From a virus, in the IMG/VR virus record IMGVR_UViG_3300032136_000002, positions 1-64,000 of that record: 64,000 nucleotides of DNA. One strand, given 5' to 3'. This document shows, in pieces, positions 2 to 58,212 of this stretch (positions are counted from its first letter, which is position 1; the number at the start of each line of letters is the position of its first letter). The position numbers and the translations under genes are program-made. The notes under the pieces are model-generated. The model saw only the letters and a list, made by a program, of their open reading frames with translations, did not search any database and was not told the DNA's origin.

Positions 2-154
2 CCGGTTGACCTCAGCATCGTAGAAGCAGAACGTGTAGCTCACTCTTACCGGCCGGTCAGGATGACCGTCCTTCTCTTTCGTCACGCGCACTGAGGGGAC
101 GCGTCTCCCGTCTGTCCACGGATCACTTATGGTGATCAGATGTTCCCACTCCAT
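2..154 (-). CDS. hypothetical protein, 5' part only (runs off window edge; MEWEHLITISDPW...)
   Basis: ATG at 154 reads open to the window edge. Its probable original RBS (AAGGAG) now lies on the far side of the 155-423 insertion. Confidence 0.55.
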   Translation of the reverse strand, partial: MEWEHLITISDPWTDGRRVPSVRVTKEKDGHPDRPVRVSYTFCFYDAEVNR

Positions 155-423
155 CTAATTTTGCGCGCTGGAGACCCCCGGCTTTAGCCGGGGGAGGAAA
201 GCGCGCCCTCCTTTTGGGTTGTAAAGCGCTTCGCTCGTGATAGAACGCTGCTGGGGGCCGGGCGGGCCCCAGCAGCACGCGGAGAGACGGTAAGACATCG
301 GCGAGGCTTCCCCTCGACGCTGCGCGTCGAGGGGAAACGTGAACCATCTTGATAGGTTGTGACTAATAACCAAAGTTGCTTCCTTTCAAGAATCCCTCGC
401 CTTTAGGCGAGGGAGGACGTCAA
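155..423 (+). mobile_element. non-autonomous IS200/IS605-family element (269 bp, PATE/MITE-like) carrying a TnpB omegaRNA-like scaffold, copy 1
   Basis: Left end GAGA+hairpin CCCCCGGCTTTAGCCGGGGG; right end GAAT+hairpin CCCTCGCCTTTAGGCGAGGG...TCAA; no TSD; preceded by CCAT; near-identical to 13127-13395 and 56930-57198. Confidence 0.9.
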
Positions 424-4122: not shown

Positions 4123-4290
4123 AGGCAGCAGACTGGACTTAGTTGACATCCTCCCCGGCATAAACGCCGGGGATTCCTAAGCGGCCTTTGCCGCTCGGGA
4201 GCGTCTCTTGCGAGCTGCTCGCGGTTTCTGCTTCGCTGAGGGCCCCAATGAGCCCTCTCCACAGACTGACAGGGTCTGCCCGACCCTCAA
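4123..4290 (-). ncRNA. TnpB omegaRNA (reRNA) with right end at 4143 and guide CTAAGTCCAGTCTGCTGCCT
   Basis: Scaffold overlaps the tnpB 3' end (GGGTCGGGCAGACCC...GTGGAGAG...GAAGCAGAAACC) and ends GAAT-CCCCGGCGTTTATGCCGGGG-AGGATGTCAA. Confidence 0.75.
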
Positions 4291-5406
4291 GATATTCTTA
4301 GCAGCGTTGATGTCCGCATCATCCTCGTGGCCGCAGGCCACGCAGACAAAACGTGCTTGTGTACGACGACTCTCAGAGCTGACGTGCGCGCATCGTGCGC
4401 ACGTCTGACTGGTGTACTTCGGCGGTACAGCTACAACCTTCCCACCTCGCCATTGCCCCTTGTAGGTGAGCTGGCGGCGAAATTCAAACCACCCCTGGTC
4501 GAGAATAGCTTTGTTCAAGCCTGCTTTGCTGCGGACGTTTTTCCCCGGCTCTTCCGTGGTCCCACGTGCCGATGCGCTCATGTTTTTAACTTTCAAATCC
4601 TCAACATACACCACCGCGTGGCTTTTGCTGATGGCCGTCGAGGTTTTGTGCAGAAAGTCGTTTCGAGCGTCGGCAATGCGGATGTGCAGCCGAGAAACGA
4701 CTGCTTTCTGTTTTTTCCAGTTGCTGGAAAATCTCTTCTTCCGTGACAGGGCACGTTGCGCGGTGCCCATTTGCTTCTCCAAACGTCGGAAGCTATCTAT
4801 GGGCTGAACAAGCTCGCCGGTCGACAGGGCGGCGAACTTCGCCACCCCCATGTCGATGCCGACCTCGGACGAACTTGGATGAATGGAGTCTGCTACCTCT
4901 CGCTCGGTCTGCACCGAGATGAACCAGTGGGCACCACGGCGCTTGACGGTAACGTTTTTGATGGTTCCTTCGATTTCTCGGCTCTTACGGAACCGTACCC
5001 AGCCAAGCGCTGGCAGCTTGATTCGACGACCATTGACCCCGATGCTGTCGTTCGCCTGCGAAAAACGGAAGCTATCGAACGACCGGCCCTTCTTCTTGAA
5101 GCGAGGAAAACCTTTTCTTTTCAAGAAGAAGTCGCTGAAGGCCTTGCCCAAATCCTTAAGAACCTGTTGCTGTGGCCTACTGTGAACCTCGGAGAGAAAC
5201 GAAAGCTCTGGGTCGTTTCGGGCTACAGTGAGTTCGCGACAAAGCTCTGCATAGTTCAGTGTTTTTGAGTGCTTACTTAGACGATGCTTCTGCAGGGCAA
5301 GAGCTGAATTCCAAATAAAGCGTATAGCTCCCGCCGTGCGCTCCAAAATCACACGCTGCCCTTCGGTAGGCTCGATTCTGAACTTGTAGCCTTGACGCCG
5401 CAGCAT
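4177..5406 (-). CDS. tnpB: IS200/IS605-family RNA-guided endonuclease TnpB (409 aa)
   Basis: N-terminal GYKFRIEPT HTH_OrfB; RuvC residues GIDMG, VEDL and DADINAA intact; C4 Zn finger CARC/CVAC; no tnpA in the window. Confidence 0.95.
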   Translation of the reverse strand: MLRRQGYKFRIEPTEGQRVILERTAGAIRFIWNSALALQKHRLSKHSKTLNYAELCRELTVARNDPELSFLSEVHSRPQQQVLKDLGKAFSDFFLKRKGFPRFKKKGRSFDSFRFSQANDSIGVNGRRIKLPALGWVRFRKSREIEGTIKNVTVKRRGAHWFISVQTEREVADSIHPSSSEVGIDMGVAKFAALSTGELVQPIDSFRRLEKQMGTAQRALSRKKRFSSNWKKQKAVVSRLHIRIADARNDFLHKTSTAISKSHAVVYVEDLKVKNMSASARGTTEEPGKNVRSKAGLNKAILDQGWFEFRRQLTYKGQWRGGKVVAVPPKYTSQTCARCAHVSSESRRTQARFVCVACGHEDDADINAAKNILRVGQTLSVCGEGSLGPSAKQKPRAARKRRSRAAKAA

Positions 5407-5876
5407 CGCGCTCGTGTAGCACCGGTGTGCGCTCCCAACAAGCAGAAAAGCTACTTCACCTAACTCCCGCTGAACCCTAGGGGCGCACCTACCCCCGTGT
5501 AAACCACTGAGACCACTCAAAGCGCAGGATCTTGTTTCAGCCCCCGCGTAACTTTGATACAACGCCCGTTCACGTAATCCGTTGGTGAAACAAGATGAAG
5601 CGCAGACAACACAGGGGAGGGAGCAGCCAACACGCTTAAAAGACGAAAGCCATCAGCCCGGCAGAACTGATGGCTCCTAAGTCTGTCTATTGACCTAACC
5701 AGTCAAGGCGAGTCCTACCGCGAGTCGTCCCGGAGGTCAATAGGTAAAGAGTGCAGAGCTGCCTCTTATTGAGGCACTATGTATACATCTCCGCACATTC
5801 AATCGTCTTTTTATTGCGTCACCTGCCGAGTGAACGTTGTCGCTCCCCCTGTTCTGACTGCGCAGGGAGCAACGAA

Positions 5877-6970: not shown

Positions 6971-7246
6971 TCACAAGCACCTCCGCACAGCGTCGATCAC
7001 ATCCTGCGAGAGGACTCCATTTCTCTCGGCCGATGACAGGGCCAAGAGGAAGTCCTCTCGCGATGCCGCATAAGTCAACTCCATCGCCACGTCAATAGCG
7101 ATGAGCCTGTACGTCTCTGATTGAGGTTTCGGTTGCACACACCACCCCAACGCACGACCGAGAGGAGCCCCAACACGGATGGCCTCCTCCAGCGCATCAC
7201 GGGACGCGCTGTCAGTCACGCATTTCAGAATTTCGGAGATAGTCAT
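6971..7246 (-). CDS. hypothetical protein
   Basis: ORF coupled to 7256-7690; RBS AGGGGG. Confidence 0.6.
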   Translation of the reverse strand: MTISEILKCVTDSASRDALEEAIRVGAPLGRALGWCVQPKPQSETYRLIAIDVAMELTYAASREDFLLALSSAERNGVLSQDVIDAVRRCL

Positions 7247-12803: not shown

Positions 12804-13126
12804 GCGGGACCTCTCAGTTGCCGGCCCTTCTCTTCGGCCTCGTCCATCACCTGCTGCCGGCCCTTATGCATGGCCTTTCCAGCGAGATAGGTCCCCAAGG
12901 CCACAACTGTGGGCAGGCCCGCTTTGCCCGCCCGGCTCGCCAGAGCTTTCACCCCTTGAGGTCCATACTTTTTCTCGAGGGCGATGCGGCCCAGGCCGCC
13001 GACGAGGTGAGCCGCGCCCGCGGCGGCCCCCGCCGTCCCGATGAGCTTAGCCTCTTGCTTCAAGCGCGCTTTGGTCGCCTCGTCCAAGGCCACCTTGATC
13101 AACTCGTCACAAAAATAGAGGTTCAT
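12800..13126 (-). CDS. small K-x-A motif internal protein
   Basis: N-terminal FCDELIKVA; Gly/Ala-rich helices. Confidence 0.65.
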   Translation of the reverse strand: MNLYFCDELIKVALDEATKARLKQEAKLIGTAGAAAGAAHLVGGLGRIALEKKYGPQGVKALASRAGKAGLPTVVALGTYLAGKAMHKGRQQVMDEAEEKGRQLRGPA

Positions 13127-13395
13127 CTAATTTTGCGCGCTGGAGACCCCCGGCTTTAGCCGGGGGAGGAAAGCGCGCCCTCCTTTTGGGTTGCAAAGCG
13201 CTTCGCTCGTGATAGAACGCTGCTGGGGGCCGGGCGGGCCCCAGCAGCACGCGGAGAGACGGTAAGACATCGGCGAGGCTTCCCCTCGACGCTGCGCGTC
13301 TCGGTGAAACGTGAACCATCTTGATAGGTTGTGACTAATAACCAAAGTTGCTTCCTTTCAAGAATCCCTCGCCTTTAGGCGAGGGAGGACGTCAA
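13127..13395 (+). mobile_element. 269-bp non-autonomous IS200/IS605 omegaRNA element, copy 2
   Basis: Near-identical to 155-423; preceded by TCAT; ends TCAA. Confidence 0.9.
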
Positions 13396-17976: not shown

Positions 17977-19095
17977 TCAGTAGCTGTCCACCGACGGGAA
18001 GGTCAGTCCATCGTCGGCCCGGTGGTTCGGGGCGCCGAGGTCCTTGACCTCCTTCGGGCTCACGTCAGCCAGGATACCGTCGGCATCGTTGGACGTGGCG
18101 TCACCGGAGTAGAGCTCCAGCTTGCGCACGGCCGCGATGTTGGCGATGACCATGGCGATGTCTTCCCAGGCCTGGAACGTAATCAAGTTCGCGATCTTGT
18201 CGATGTAGAACTGGACGTTGTTCAGGACGAAGAAGCAGCCCAAGTAGTCCGGGTCCGTGAAGACGTACACGTTGCCGGGTCGGAGGATGTCGGTCTTGAC
18301 CGTCCGGACGAAGCTGAAGCCCATGACCATCTGGTACTTGTAGCCGTCGACCGTGGTCTCGCTCTGGACCTTGTCGCCCATGTCCTCGACCGTCCACTGG
18401 TGGAGGTCCAGGAACTCGCCCTCGGTGAAGAGGAACTTGCGCGGGCGCAGCCGGTTGTTGGCCAAGAGCTTGGCCAAGTTGGTCAGGTCCGGCTTCTGGA
18501 GCGGATAGACCGTGGCGTCGTCAGTGGCGGCCTGACGAGCGATGGAGCCCTTGCGCACAGAGGCCTCAACCGTGGTGCCGATGGCCGACGCGTTGAGCGT
18601 GGTCACGGAGCCACCGTTGGCCTCTTGCTGCACGGCTTGAACTGCCGCCTCGATGTGGATGGTCCACTCGCGGTCTTCAATCTCCTGGATGTCTTTGAGG
18701 CTGTTGTCCTCAATCCACTTGGTGATGGAGACGTCGTAGGCGTACAGCTCCTGGGTGAACTTCTCGAACTTCTCACTCGAGATGGTGTAGAACGGCACCT
18801 CGATGCGAGGAGCGCGGATGATGCGGGCGTCGGGCTGACCACGGAAGGTCAACGGCATGGCCCGGCTCTCGGGCTCGAGCGTGATGAGTTTCGTCACGGT
18901 GTCGTAGTTGACCGAGGGACGGACGTCCGCCTTGGTCACGGGCTCGGGCGGAACGAAGTTCCGAGCGTAGGACACCTCGCGCAGCCGGTCCCGGATCATT
19001 TTGCCGGTCAGCTGAGCGATCTTGTTTTTGCCCTCCGGCGTATCGAGCCGGGAGGCGAACAGGTCATTGATCAAGCTATAGTCTGTGCCTGACAT
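17977..19095 (-). CDS. major capsid protein (HK97 fold)
   Basis: 372 aa; follows protease, scaffold and decoration genes; IRDRLRE..., DIQEIEDRE spine helix; very high GC3; followed by a terminator. Confidence 0.8.
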   Translation of the reverse strand: MSGTDYSLINDLFASRLDTPEGKNKIAQLTGKMIRDRLREVSYARNFVPPEPVTKADVRPSVNYDTVTKLITLEPESRAMPLTFRGQPDARIIRAPRIEVPFYTISSEKFEKFTQELYAYDVSITKWIEDNSLKDIQEIEDREWTIHIEAAVQAVQQEANGGSVTTLNASAIGTTVEASVRKGSIARQAATDDATVYPLQKPDLTNLAKLLANNRLRPRKFLFTEGEFLDLHQWTVEDMGDKVQSETTVDGYKYQMVMGFSFVRTVKTDILRPGNVYVFTDPDYLGCFFVLNNVQFYIDKIANLITFQAWEDIAMVIANIAAVRKLELYSGDATSNDADGILADVSPKEVKDLGAPNHRADDGLTFPSVDSY

Positions 19096-20014: not shown

Positions 20015-21244
20015 TCACATCATTGGGTTGCCGCCAGCCGGCGAGGGCTCGACGGTGGACGGGACATTGGAGGCTCCAGGAACGCTACCGTTTTGGGCCT
20101 CTTTCTCAGACGCACCTGACTTGGAATCGAGGCGAGACGCGACTCTGCAGAACTTGCACTCCCCTTTCTCAAGGCCTTCCTGTTCACAGGTACAGCCCTC
20201 GGAGGCAATCTTGCTGATCAGTGCCCGAGCTGCGGCGATTTTGAGCTTCCGCTCACTCGCGATCTTCGCCCCGGCTTGGTCAACAACTTGGGCTCCCAAA
20301 GTCTGGTCCAATGCCTTATCGGTAGAGCGGGTCAAGGCCTTCTCACTGAGCAGAGCCGCGAGGTCCTGCTTTGAAAGAGCCTTGGCCTTCCGTTTGGTCA
20401 GATTCAGAGCAGCCTCGTTGGAGGCGAGCATGGCCCGCTGTCCTTCAGCTCCCGCGGCGAGCGGGGCGTTGAGTGGACGGTCCTCTGGCAAGACCGCACT
20501 CTTCGAGGCACGGATGTTGGTCTTGGCGTTGTCCTCCGCATACTTCTGATGCATGGCGGCGACGTACTCTTGGAGCGACCCCGTTTTGGCTTTCGCCCCA
20601 CGCTCTTTGCCCACGTACTTGTGGATGTCCCCGAAAGACATGGAACTGGGGTCTTTCCCTGTCGCCTTTTGGTAACGAGAGAAAGCCCCCTTGAGCTCCG
20701 GACTCTTGGGGTTCTGCGCGAGGACATCAGCTAAGGCCGCTTGTTTGGCCTGAGCAGCCTCATTGGTCGCCATGGCGGCAGGAGCATTCTCCTGCAGCAC
20801 CTTCTCTTGAGCAGGGTGGGTCGGGATCTTGGCCCTGGCCTCACCAAAGTTGGACGGCGCCGACTCCGCCTGCTGCTTCACATTGGTGGGCATCTGAGTG
20901 GCGTTCTCAGGGGCCCCTTCCATGGCCGTGACTATCCGGCCGACCGAAGACTGGTCGCCCTGGAGCAGGACGCGGACCACCTCTTCGATGGCACTGGCCA
21001 TCTTCTCCACACGGTCCCGGTCGGTGTCCTCCGACTCAGGGTTGTCCTGACCGCCGCCTTGGGCCTTTTCTTCCTTCTCGGCCTCGCGCTCGGCCTCATC
21101 TTTCGACTTGCGAGAGGGGGCTTTGCTTTCGCCTTGAGCTTCTGCCGATTCATCCATCTCATCGGCTGCTTGGGCGATCTTGCTCAGCGCCTGCCCCTCT
21201 GCGCCAGCCAAGACCCCATCGATCATCTGTTGGAGCGTGAGCAT
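20015..21244 (-). CDS. scaffold-like K-x-A motif protein (409 aa); first six codons and RBS appear to be a recoded replacement
   Basis: About 8 KxA motifs; a second copy of its 5' end lies at 21562-21579. Confidence 0.7.
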   Translation of the reverse strand: MLTLQQMIDGVLAGAEGQALSKIAQAADEMDESAEAQGESKAPSRKSKDEAEREAEKEEKAQGGGQDNPESEDTDRDRVEKMASAIEEVVRVLLQGDQSSVGRIVTAMEGAPENATQMPTNVKQQAESAPSNFGEARAKIPTHPAQEKVLQENAPAAMATNEAAQAKQAALADVLAQNPKSPELKGAFSRYQKATGKDPSSMSFGDIHKYVGKERGAKAKTGSLQEYVAAMHQKYAEDNAKTNIRASKSAVLPEDRPLNAPLAAGAEGQRAMLASNEAALNLTKRKAKALSKQDLAALLSEKALTRSTDKALDQTLGAQVVDQAGAKIASERKLKIAAARALISKIASEGCTCEQEGLEKGECKFCRVASRLDSKSGASEKEAQNGSVPGASNVPSTVEPSPAGGNPMM

Positions 21245-21319
21245 GCGTGTATCCTTTCAGAAACACAGAGGAAACATGGGTGCTGACGCTTCCCGTGCTT
21301 CCGCCAAGTTACTTTCCGT

Positions 21320-21581
21320 TGCGAAGCTCCCAGCTTTTGCTACAAAGCCGCTGGGGGCCGGGCGGGCCCTTTCAGTACGTGGAGAGACGGTAAGACAGCA
21401 CCGGGGCTCTCCCTCGGGGTTGCTCGTTTCGTTGAAGCGTGAACCATCTTGGAAAGAGCGGGCGATAACCAAGCCCACTCCACCCAAGAAGCCGCTTTTT
21501 TGATGGAAGCGGTGGACGCCAAGTGCGCCCCCGCCACCAACCAGAAGGCGGTGGACGTCAACTGCTGTAGCGTGAGCATGC
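21320..21581 (+). ncRNA. stand-alone TnpB omegaRNA scaffold with duplicated 3' end and two guides
   Basis: Scaffold GCTGGGGGCCGGGCGGGCCC...GGAGAGACGGTAAGACA...GAAGCGTGAACCATCTT shared with the 269-bp elements; repeat GCGGTGGACGYCAA at 21509-21522 and 21548-21561; promoter-like TTGCGA-N16-TACAAA. Confidence 0.75.
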
Positions 21582-21591
21582 ATTTCCATTC

Positions 21592-21879
21592 TCACACCCG
21601 CACGGGTGGCGGGGGCACCATGTGGGCCCCCGCCACCACCGAGTTGTCCGGTTGCACGACTTCTGTGTTTGGAACGGTGTAGTTGGTCTTCTGCAGGTTG
21701 GTCTTGGAGACCACCTTCCCAACAAGCTGCTTAGACGTAGTGGGTTTGGACGGATTGCTTTGCATCCGTTTCCCATCCCCTCCAGGGTTGGGAGGGCTGA
21801 TGATTGAGGGGTGTGAAGTGTACGCTGCAATCTTCAGCAGCTCCTCAACCATCGCCCGATAAAAGACCGGCGTGATCAC
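21592..21879 (-). CDS. small K-x-A motif internal protein
   Basis: N-terminal FYRAMVEELLKIAA. Confidence 0.7.
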   Translation of the reverse strand: MITPVFYRAMVEELLKIAAYTSHPSIISPPNPGGDGKRMQSNPSKPTTSKQLVGKVVSKTNLQKTNYTVPNTEVVQPDNSVVAGAHMVPPPPVRV

Positions 21880-56929: not shown

Positions 56930-57198
56930 TTGACGTCCTCCCTCGCCTAAAGGCGAGGGATTCTTGAAAGGAAGCAACTTTGGTTATTAGTCACAACCTA
57001 TCAAGATGGTTCACGTTTCACCGAGACGCGCAGCGTCGAGGGGAAGCCTCGCCGATGTCTTACCGTCTCTCCGCGTGCTGCTGGGGCCCGCCCGGCCCCC
57101 AGCAGCGTTCTATCACGAGCGAAGCGCTTTACAACCCAAAAGGAAGGCGCGCTTTCCTCCCCCGGCTAAAGCCGGGGGTCTCCAGCGCGCAAAATTAG
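56930..57198 (-). mobile_element. 269-bp non-autonomous IS200/IS605 omegaRNA element, copy 3 (inverted)
   Basis: Reverse complement of copies 1 and 2; lies between the helicase stop and the primase ATG. Confidence 0.9.
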
Positions 57199-58212
57199 AT
57201 GAGCGCAGTAGTTGAAACTCTCACCCCCCTGGTGGGCTCTTTCCGCAAGAGCGGGACTGACTGGGTCACCCGGTCGTGTCCCTTCCACAGCGACCGCACA
57301 CCCTCATTCGCGGTCAACACGCGGAACGGCTGCTGGGTTTGTCACAGCTGTGGGCAGAAAGGGACGCTGCCCCGGCTGCTGAAGCTCCTCGGCCTCCCCC
57401 GCGAACAAGTCGACCGCATCATGACTCCTCTGCGAGAGCAACTTGAGGAGTACGTGCGGAGACAACAATTTGCGCTCGACCACCGGTTTGAGCGAGACCC
57501 CTTCCGGGCCGACTACCCCTTGCCTGAGCACCTCTTGGGCCTCTACGACTTCTGCCCAACGCTCCTGCTCGAAAAGGGGTTCGACCCCGCGGTCCTGCAG
57601 TCCCTCGACATCGGATTTGACCGAGGACGCAACCGCATCACCTTCCCCATCAGAGACCTCTACGGGAACCTGGCCGGCCTCTCAGGCCGCACCACGGTCG
57701 GGGCCTATCCAAGGTACAAGGTCTACACCGCCGGCTTCGAGGCAAGCACCGGCTGGGTAAACAGCGACTTCGGGGCCAACTTCGATGAGGAGTACCCCGA
57801 CTACACCATCGACAAGAGCCGCTTTTTGTGGAACGGCCACGAGGCCCTCCCCATCGCAATGGACTCCCCTTCAGAAGAGCCTGTTATCGTTGTGGAAGGC
57901 TACAAGGCGTGTTTGTGGTTGATTCAAGCCGGGTTTCCCTTGACCGTAGCCCTAATGGGCGCCTCGCTGAGCACATTCCAAGCTGACCTCTTACGCCGCT
58001 TGGCCAACCCCATCGTACTGTTCCTCGACAACAATTCCGCGGGTCACGCGGGTACAAGAAGAGCAGTCGATAGTCTTAGCCGTTCCAACACCGTAAAATC
58101 CGTGACATACCCTGACTGGGCAATTTCATCTACGCAACCTGACGACTTTGAGACTGACGTACTTAACCACTTGATACTCAACGCAAAGCCTGAGTACTGG
58201 AAAGGAAACTGA
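57199..58212 (+). CDS. DnaG-type DNA primase
   Basis: CPFH..DRTPSF...CHSC zinc finger; RITFPI; Toprim VVEG and LFLDN. Confidence 0.9.
   Translation: MSAVVETLTPLVGSFRKSGTDWVTRSCPFHSDRTPSFAVNTRNGCWVCHSCGQKGTLPRLLKLLGLPREQVDRIMTPLREQLEEYVRRQQFALDHRFERDPFRADYPLPEHLLGLYDFCPTLLLEKGFDPAVLQSLDIGFDRGRNRITFPIRDLYGNLAGLSGRTTVGAYPRYKVYTAGFEASTGWVNSDFGANFDEEYPDYTIDKSRFLWNGHEALPIAMDSPSEEPVIVVEGYKACLWLIQAGFPLTVALMGASLSTFQADLLRRLANPIVLFLDNNSAGHAGTRRAVDSLSRSNTVKSVTYPDWAISSTQPDDFETDVLNHLILNAKPEYWKGN

Follow-up and report, generated by a model that had tools for sequence, protein, structure and literature searches.

Elements of the IS200/IS605 type that carry TnpB and its omegaRNA are believed to maintain themselves by having the unoccupied site cut and being copied back into it. 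The guide of every IS605 element is the DNA lying to the right of the insertion site, and according to the IS608 rule the four bases placed 5′ of the hairpin foot pair with the cleavage site. ISDra2 TnpB cuts the target strand 20–21 bp from the TAM, and the other strand 15 bp from it (PMC8612924). Protein-less mini-elements carrying omegaRNAs for use in trans have been described (10.1101/2023.03.14.532601), and the proposal that transposons home from one co-infecting phage to another rests mostly on theory (PMC13565253). The same review, in its part on TranC, deals with systems where the omegaRNA is split into a tracrRNA and a crRNA (PMC13565253).

The locus analysed here lies in a window of 64 kb, which is the first part of a linear, 102-kb IMG/VR virus record of 56% estimated completeness. 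It is on the plus strand, in the 347-nt gap between two head-module genes, and the genes around it are all on the minus strand. The first gene (20015..21244), coding for 409 aa, is placed two genes upstream of the major head protein gene (17977-19095, PHROG 2522, E 3e-12); the second one (21592..21879) codes for 95 aa. The head-module neighbours, both flanking proteins included, gave no Pfam or PHROG match. The N-terminal 27 residues of the 409-aa protein are invariant in six homologues, which elsewhere are 65–72% identical, and the C-terminus of the 95-aa protein is conserved in nine homologues, so both genes need those ends.

Within the gap, at 21488-21561, a single hairpin 5′ arm serves two copies of the 3′ arm and tail of an omegaRNA right end, hereafter R1 and R2. 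The locus shares with IS200/IS605 omegaRNAs and PATE-like elements a scaffold homologous to TnpB-linked omegaRNAs, a hairpin followed by a (T/C)CAA tail, tnpB 3′ frame remnants inside the scaffold, guides made of the DNA that adjoins the end on its right, and targets made of a motif and the same DNA, unoccupied. Homology, a right-end hairpin with a tail of about 10 nt, and a motif-flanked target for each guide, by which an omegaRNA is recognised, were thus all found. It differs from these elements in lacking a left end and a neighbouring tnpB, and in having two right-end tails, two flank-derived guides, a deviant tetranucleotide and a deviant end; moreover, duplicated target pieces of 20–22 nt rebuild the two genes that had been interrupted. 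The left-end hairpin and the Y1 transposase of a mobile IS200/IS605 or PATE element were not found, the transposase having been looked for over the 102-kb record.

The repeat-spacer-repeat geometry, the spacer-like lengths and the possible pairing between repeat and arm recall TranC and the type V CRISPR-Cas12 systems, taken as they are presented in the relevant part of PMC13565253. Unlike the arrays treated in that part, the locus consists of two units only, the second being a half hairpin, its spacers copy adjacent self genes instead of foreign DNA, and it lacks a separate tracrRNA gene, an adjacent effector, adaptation genes and relatives with variable repeat numbers (PMC13565253). Neither a repeat number varying among relatives nor spacers independent of their own flanks, which would characterise CRISPR or TranC, were observed. 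The only complementary arm is borne by one contiguous scaffold; pairing with R2 is thermodynamically possible, and no separate RNA is evident. A further likeness is with the free-standing homing endonucleases Seg and Mob of T-even phages, active in intronless homing and marker exclusion: in the summary of PMC13565253, they too form selfish cassettes between conserved genes in which their targets lie, and self and non-self differ by few substitutions. In contrast to Seg and Mob, recognition at the present locus would rely on a guide RNA and not on a protein, and no nuclease is encoded in the cassette (PMC13565253). Overall, the locus looks more like the repair scar of RNA-guided cutting than like the start of a CRISPR array.

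Reading of the sequence gave the following order. The guide tetranucleotide GAAG (21488-21491) precedes the 8-nt 5′ arm of the right-end hairpin (21492-21499) and a 5-nt loop. R1 is made of a 3′ arm (21505-21512) and a 10-nt tail ending with CCAA at 21522; R2 (21545-21561) is made of a second 3′ arm and a tail ending with TCAA, and has no 5′ arm of its own. Between R1 and R2 are 22 nt of different sequence. The pair was recovered in a repeat search as an 18-nt repeat of 89% identity with a 39-nt spacing, and the 12-nt core of the tail, with Y allowed at one position, occurs exactly twice in the 64 kb, at R1 and at R2. Comparison with 33 family members showed that GAAG replaces a nearly invariant GAAT and that CCAA replaces TCAA in R1. 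It also showed derived bases common to R1 and R2, which are therefore sister copies. Since R1 and R2 differ at two positions and have different flanks, an assembly artefact is unlikely.

Folding predicted that the 5′ arm pairs with R1 with a probability of 0.95 if the RNA ends before R2, and with R2 with a probability of 0.85 once R2 is included, R1 and guide 1 being then folded away in between. Duplex energies were −11.8 kcal/mol for R1 and −12.8 kcal/mol for R2. As modelled, it is thermodynamically possible for either 3′ copy to pair with the single 5′ arm.

The sequence upstream of the doubled end, from 21318 to 21522 on the plus strand, was recognised by BLAST and by a covariance model as an omegaRNA-type scaffold ending with the CCAA of R1. 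It contains remnants of the tnpB 3′ reading frame, a long-range helix, a penultimate stem-loop and the right-end hairpin. By BLAST, 21318-21451 is 78% identical to three mini-elements of the same phage, described below. Homology with these begins at their position 66, and left of 21356 the family model, which does detect the left-end hairpins of the mini-elements, detected nothing. All 39 relatives of the phage's TnpB on viral contigs share one end architecture, consisting of GGAATC, a hairpin, and GGAGGATGTCAA. The covariance model was trained on 27 TnpB-linked omegaRNAs, leaving out the mini-elements and the doubled-end locus. It matched the locus over its full length (all 144 positions, 21356-21522) with 37 bits and an E-value of 4e-9, compared to 63 bits for the three mini-elements and 100 bits for the omegaRNA of the phage's own TnpB, both at full length as well; left-end hairpins apart, the 102-kb record had no further matches. 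A full-length match ending at R1 means that the scaffold is complete, if divergent. Rfam gave no match at gathering thresholds. The locus is an outlier of the family at positions conserved in at least 90% of its members, where it has GAAG for GAAT, GGTGGA for GGAGGA and, in R1, CCAA for TCAA. Relative to the mini-elements, all changes in the right-end hairpin (8–9 bp) and in the preceding stem-loop are fully compensatory, the long-range helix of the family is retained, and a conserved remnant of the TnpB C-terminal frame is present both in the locus, from about 21340 onwards, and in the mini-elements (tblastn, E ~0.02). These features speak for descent of the scaffold from an element that once worked, and against a chance resemblance.

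The descriptive part of the original prediction was borne out by these analyses. It had reported a 3′ arm and tail doubled around a single 5′ arm, as sequence reading and repeat search also found, and a canonical right end altered to a GAAG form, a deviation which, together with that of CCAA, holds against the 33 family members. The absence of a left-end hairpin agrees with the homology start at position 66 and with the family model, and the pairing of either copy with the 5′ arm agrees with folding (0.95 and 0.85) and duplex energies. The assignment of the right end to an IS200/IS605-type omegaRNA was upheld by the covariance model, at 37 bits, and the proposal that the locus is non-mobile by the missing left-end hairpin, the deviant tetranucleotide and end, and the lack of TnpA in the 102-kb record.

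The three mini-elements, of the PATE/MITE type, are located at 153-423 (plus), 13125-13395 (plus) and 56930-57200 (minus). They are 271 nt long, 99% identical and devoid of ORFs; as features they are annotated at 155..423, 13127..13395 and 56930..57198. Each has a left-end hairpin, an omegaRNA-like body and a canonical right end, at ~390-423, 13362-13395 and, on the minus strand, 56930-56963. All three adjoin the start codon of an opposite-strand gene. Copies 2 and 3 are inserted in ATGA stop/start overlaps, which are restored upon their in silico excision; the TCAA end of the element recreates the upstream stop, so that insertion was silent for both genes. At their left boundaries the mini-elements adjoin CCAT, TCAT and TCAT. 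When the IS608 rule was checked on relatives, the left-end guide CAAG corresponded to TGAC in five loci, and AAAA to TTAT in two loci; for the GAGA guide of the mini-elements, the rule predicts TCNT, consistent with TCAT. Adding the two sites at the doubled-end locus, inferred insertion sites are YCAT in 5/5 cases.

The only tnpB of the record (4177-5406, minus strand) codes for 409 aa from the Met at 5406, with HTH, RuvC and zinc ribbon domains, and its catalytic D-E-D and zinc finger are intact. Its own omegaRNA and right end are at 4143-4285 (minus strand); the left-end hairpin of this element (region 4143-5600) has decayed. The relatives closest to this TnpB, at 69% and 54% identity, are preceded by TTAT and not by TCAT. 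The 69% relative belongs to a 177-kb phage (L009/G001) and shows no synteny with the tnpB of the present phage. No TnpA (Y1 transposase) was detected in the 102-kb record. A TCAT-type nuclease may be encoded by the host, or by the part of the phage genome that the record lacks.

Both sequences following the doubled tails proved to be copies of the flanking genes. Guide 1 (c′, 22 nt, 21523..21544, plus strand) copies the stretch that follows a CCAT in the 95-aa gene. This site, hereafter site 2 (CCAT and 22-nt target c, 21618..21643), has its CCAT in His-Met codons near the end of the gene. Guide 1 matches 21622-21643, directly after CCAT, at 19/22 positions, and this is its sole other match in the 64 kb, for a chance expectation of 0. 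Within its first 17 positions the only mismatch is at position 4, where the change is synonymous in the 95-aa gene; the two others, at positions 18 and 20, are changes of the non-coding copy, since the gene keeps conserved residues there. The last codons of the gene also contain a perfect 12-bp inverted repeat (21605-21637), the first arm of which is fully complementary to part of guide 1 (21527-21538). A long plus-strand transcript might sequester guide 1 by means of this arm.

Guide 2 (b, 20 nt, 21562-21581, plus strand) represents the former beginning of the 409-aa gene (start and six codons), and is followed, within 21562..21591, by the original 12-nt intergenic spacer. Its counterpart is site 1, a TAM-like TCAT (21223..21226) which is the antisense of the ATGA at codon 7 (Met) of the gene, and next to it a 20-nt copy, b′ (21227..21246), which makes up the present codons 1–6, start included, plus 2 nt. 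Guide 2 matches 21227-21246, directly after TCAT, at 18/20 positions, a match unique in the 64 kb (chance expectation 0), and the mismatches, at target positions 4 and 7, are both synonymous in the 409-aa gene. Removing 21227-21561 in silico left the stop of the 95-aa gene, 12 nt and a start codon in succession, with an unchanged 409-aa protein, and exactly this tight junction exists in L008, a distant relative on a metagenome contig. Guide 2 and the next 10 nt are therefore the original gene start and spacer. Judging from this restored junction, the insert is a 335-nt cassette placed at the internal ATGA of codon 7, and bringing a replacement for the six codons that it severed.

Between b′ and the scaffold is a 71-nt linker (21247..21317, plus strand) with no clear homologue, holding the present RBS-like site of the 409-aa gene. 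It resembles a left end weakly at best and has no hairpin, and as a tnpB 3′ coding remnant it scored weakly (tblastn, E 0.27). The possibility that the linker and b′ are a diverged gene-junction allele from another lineage was rejected, in so far as it means a copy of 21582-21621 of the same age. The alternative C-terminal tail that such an allele implies is in none of the nine 95-aa protein homologues, and the identity of the linker to 21582-21621 is far lower than that in the other duplicated pieces.

Relatives were searched for arrays of the same kind. No CRISPR-like array was found in the 39 related TnpB loci or in two IMG/VR pattern scans, where the only tandem duplications, of 2 copies, were those of L050 and L051. 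In L050 (130-300), a phage TnpB locus, a tandem duplication without spacer covers the ~64 nt with which the omegaRNA ends, final stem-loops and right end included. Where the 7.2-kb viral contig L051 comes to its end (7100-7172), a solo right-end hairpin, long and palindromic, precedes a tandem duplication of 33 nt (loop, 3′ arm, tail and 12-nt flank), which places a second tail 21 nt behind the first. These two cases indicate that partial duplications of the right end occur elsewhere as plain accidents. Reduced forms of the family were seen beside full tnpB genes: a mini remnant of ~45 nt, with hairpin and tail, in L045 (1720-1767), and an internally deleted element of ~330 nt that has both ends in L040 (4620-4948). 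The 409-aa protein and its alignment, used as queries, found nothing in viral contigs, and in the metagenome scan only the distant L008. INPHARED phages gave no match to the locus, and exact-pattern searches for the mini-element/div4 scaffold subtype returned chance matches in coding DNA only, none of them in genome contigs.

The original prediction had interpreted the doubled end as an intermediate between omegaRNA and CRISPR. Its omegaRNA right end, its lack of mobility and its dual pairing stand. A split into tracrRNA and crRNA, or an array in the CRISPR sense, is not supported: the model places one contiguous scaffold ending at R1, and both spacers copy adjacent genes beside YCAT, as ordinary junctions between right end and flank would give. 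A search for homologues of variable repeat number, in 39 related TnpB loci and two IMG/VR pattern scans, brought up no comparable array. A functional intermediate is in this sense unsupported, not refuted.

We favour another origin, to which we give a probability of about 60%. The locus would be the remnant of an immobilised IS200/IS605 (TnpB/omegaRNA) element, in which two right-end/flank junctions were joined during repair of TnpB-made breaks. This remnant would be lodged antisense between the two head-module genes, its scaffold up to R1 being an ordinary, divergent omegaRNA, and no spacer-acquisition process would have built the doubled 3′ end. The two junctions would come from two neighbouring YCAT target sites, ~60 nt apart: R2 followed by b as the right junction of an element inserted at site 1 (TCAT, codon 7 ATGA of the 409-aa gene), and R1 followed by c′ as the right junction of an element inserted at site 2 (CCAT, His-Met of the 95-aa gene). 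Both target sites are also present uninterrupted in today's sequence. The interrupted genes would have been repaired by short target duplications, of 20 nt on the left (b′) and of 22 nt after R1 (c′). The distances from the motif to the ends of these duplicated pieces, 20 and 22 nt, agree with that at which ISDra2 TnpB cuts the target strand, so the mosaic probably results from breaks made by guide-b and guide-c RNPs and imprecisely repaired. Repair would have occurred between element-bearing and element-free alleles, the mosaic would have survived because its arrangement keeps both genes intact, and the mismatches at target positions 4 and 7 would spare the phage's own copies. Alternatively, a right end may have slipped, as in L050 and L051, followed by an aberrant TnpA event at the better-matching outer sites (TCAT, TCAA), and then by a self-inflicted cut and a deletion. 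After either history, guide 1, being contiguous with a structurally intact scaffold, may still direct cutting, that is homing, given a cognate TCAT-type TnpB; guide 2 could act only through pairing of R2 with the single 5′ arm.

Two other routes were tried and rejected. Two tandem elements might have crossed over unequally, or TnpA might have made one ‘extended’ excision at the outer TCAT; either would duplicate b, and either needs an added slippage of the right end to give the order R1-c′-R2. Several points count against a repair scar. No single event that we tried yields R1-c′-R2-b, and each history tried takes two steps or more. The two-insertion history is deduced, the searches having recovered no relative in which one of the sites carries a single insertion. 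The lengths of 20–22 nt, the mismatches near the motif and the intact scaffold equally fit a selected two-guide cassette. Finally, the left breakpoint, at 20 nt, implies a former guide-b RNP, and guide b now hangs only on R2.

The most direct competitor is indeed a functional two-guide omegaRNA locus, where the one 5′ arm acts like an anti-repeat, to which either R1 or R2 pairs. The arm-R1 and arm-R2 pairings are about equally stable, the latter dominating in a long transcript, the units have the length of guides (20–22 nt), and the covarying helices of the family are retained in the scaffold. Yet such a locus is unlikely. It is a single instance, with no array-bearing relative in the 39 TnpB loci or the two IMG/VR scans, R2 has no hairpin of its own, and we know of no TnpB that accepts a scaffold interrupted by ~40 nt. 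Its right-end region also departs from the family at three to four positions with a conservation of 90% or more, with 37 bits against 63 in the model, and no promoter was predicted in a scan covering the sigma-70 type. Extended to a purpose, the same proposal has a cognate TnpB cutting cassette-free relatives in both flanking genes, by homing or marker exclusion, and the carrier immune to itself by synonymous changes. Each guide does have its motif-flanked site beside the cassette, one on the left and one on the right, where conserved protein regions are encoded, and the phage's own sites have a mismatch at position 4 that is synonymous in both genes. However, all synonymous sites of these codons are near the motif, so this mismatch pattern neither discriminates nor proves selection, and the only TnpB of the record has relatives after TTAT, not TCAT; we hold this extension to be doubtful. 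That the locus is a natural cassette for RNA-guided ‘intronless homing’ or marker exclusion, with two guides on one scaffold and a carrier protected by recoding, is improbable in our view.

At the other extreme, scaffold, R1, guide 1, R2 and guide 2 might all be inert, decaying debris, none of whose RNA guides anything now. The lost left end, the deviant GAAG and CCAA, the lower model score, the missing promoter and the lack of an identified cognate nuclease all go in this direction. Decay fits poorly, however, with a right-end hairpin and a penultimate stem-loop kept by fully compensatory changes, with a retained long-range helix, and with a guide 1 that mismatches its target at one only of the first 17 positions; we find general decay rather unlikely, if conceivable. 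Much less credit goes to an origin of R2 by simple replication slippage, as a tandem duplication of the L051 kind, or by assembly chimerism, with no second target site: both are very improbable. Tandem duplications of 33 nt (L051) and 64 nt (L050) do exist, but after slippage the DNA behind R2 should resemble guide 1, whereas the sequence found there is that with which the 409-aa gene originally began, at exactly the post-TCAT position. The identity of the flanks thus contradicts slippage as the sole event. As for a collapsed or chimeric assembly, it is unlikely because R1 and R2 differ in sequence, and an independent contig of 101,747 bp encodes an identical 95-aa protein.

One phage thus combines an intact TnpB, three mini-elements silently placed in stop/start overlaps, and one stranded omegaRNA. 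The guides of the latter point at the conserved ends of both genes that were once interrupted, and its breakpoints are at the expected cut distance. If two guides do function on this scaffold, duplication of a right end alone could create a proto-array. If the locus is a homing cassette, it would be a living first step from the one-guide RNA of a transposon to a multi-guide array, taken without spacer-acquisition machinery, and the cassette would be copied into siblings by recombination, or the rival phage destroyed. If, as we favour, it is a repair scar, RNA-guided breaks would remodel phage genomes, and insertions into coding sequence would be rescued by target duplication. The locus offers a concrete natural substrate on which homing of transposons in phages can be tested.
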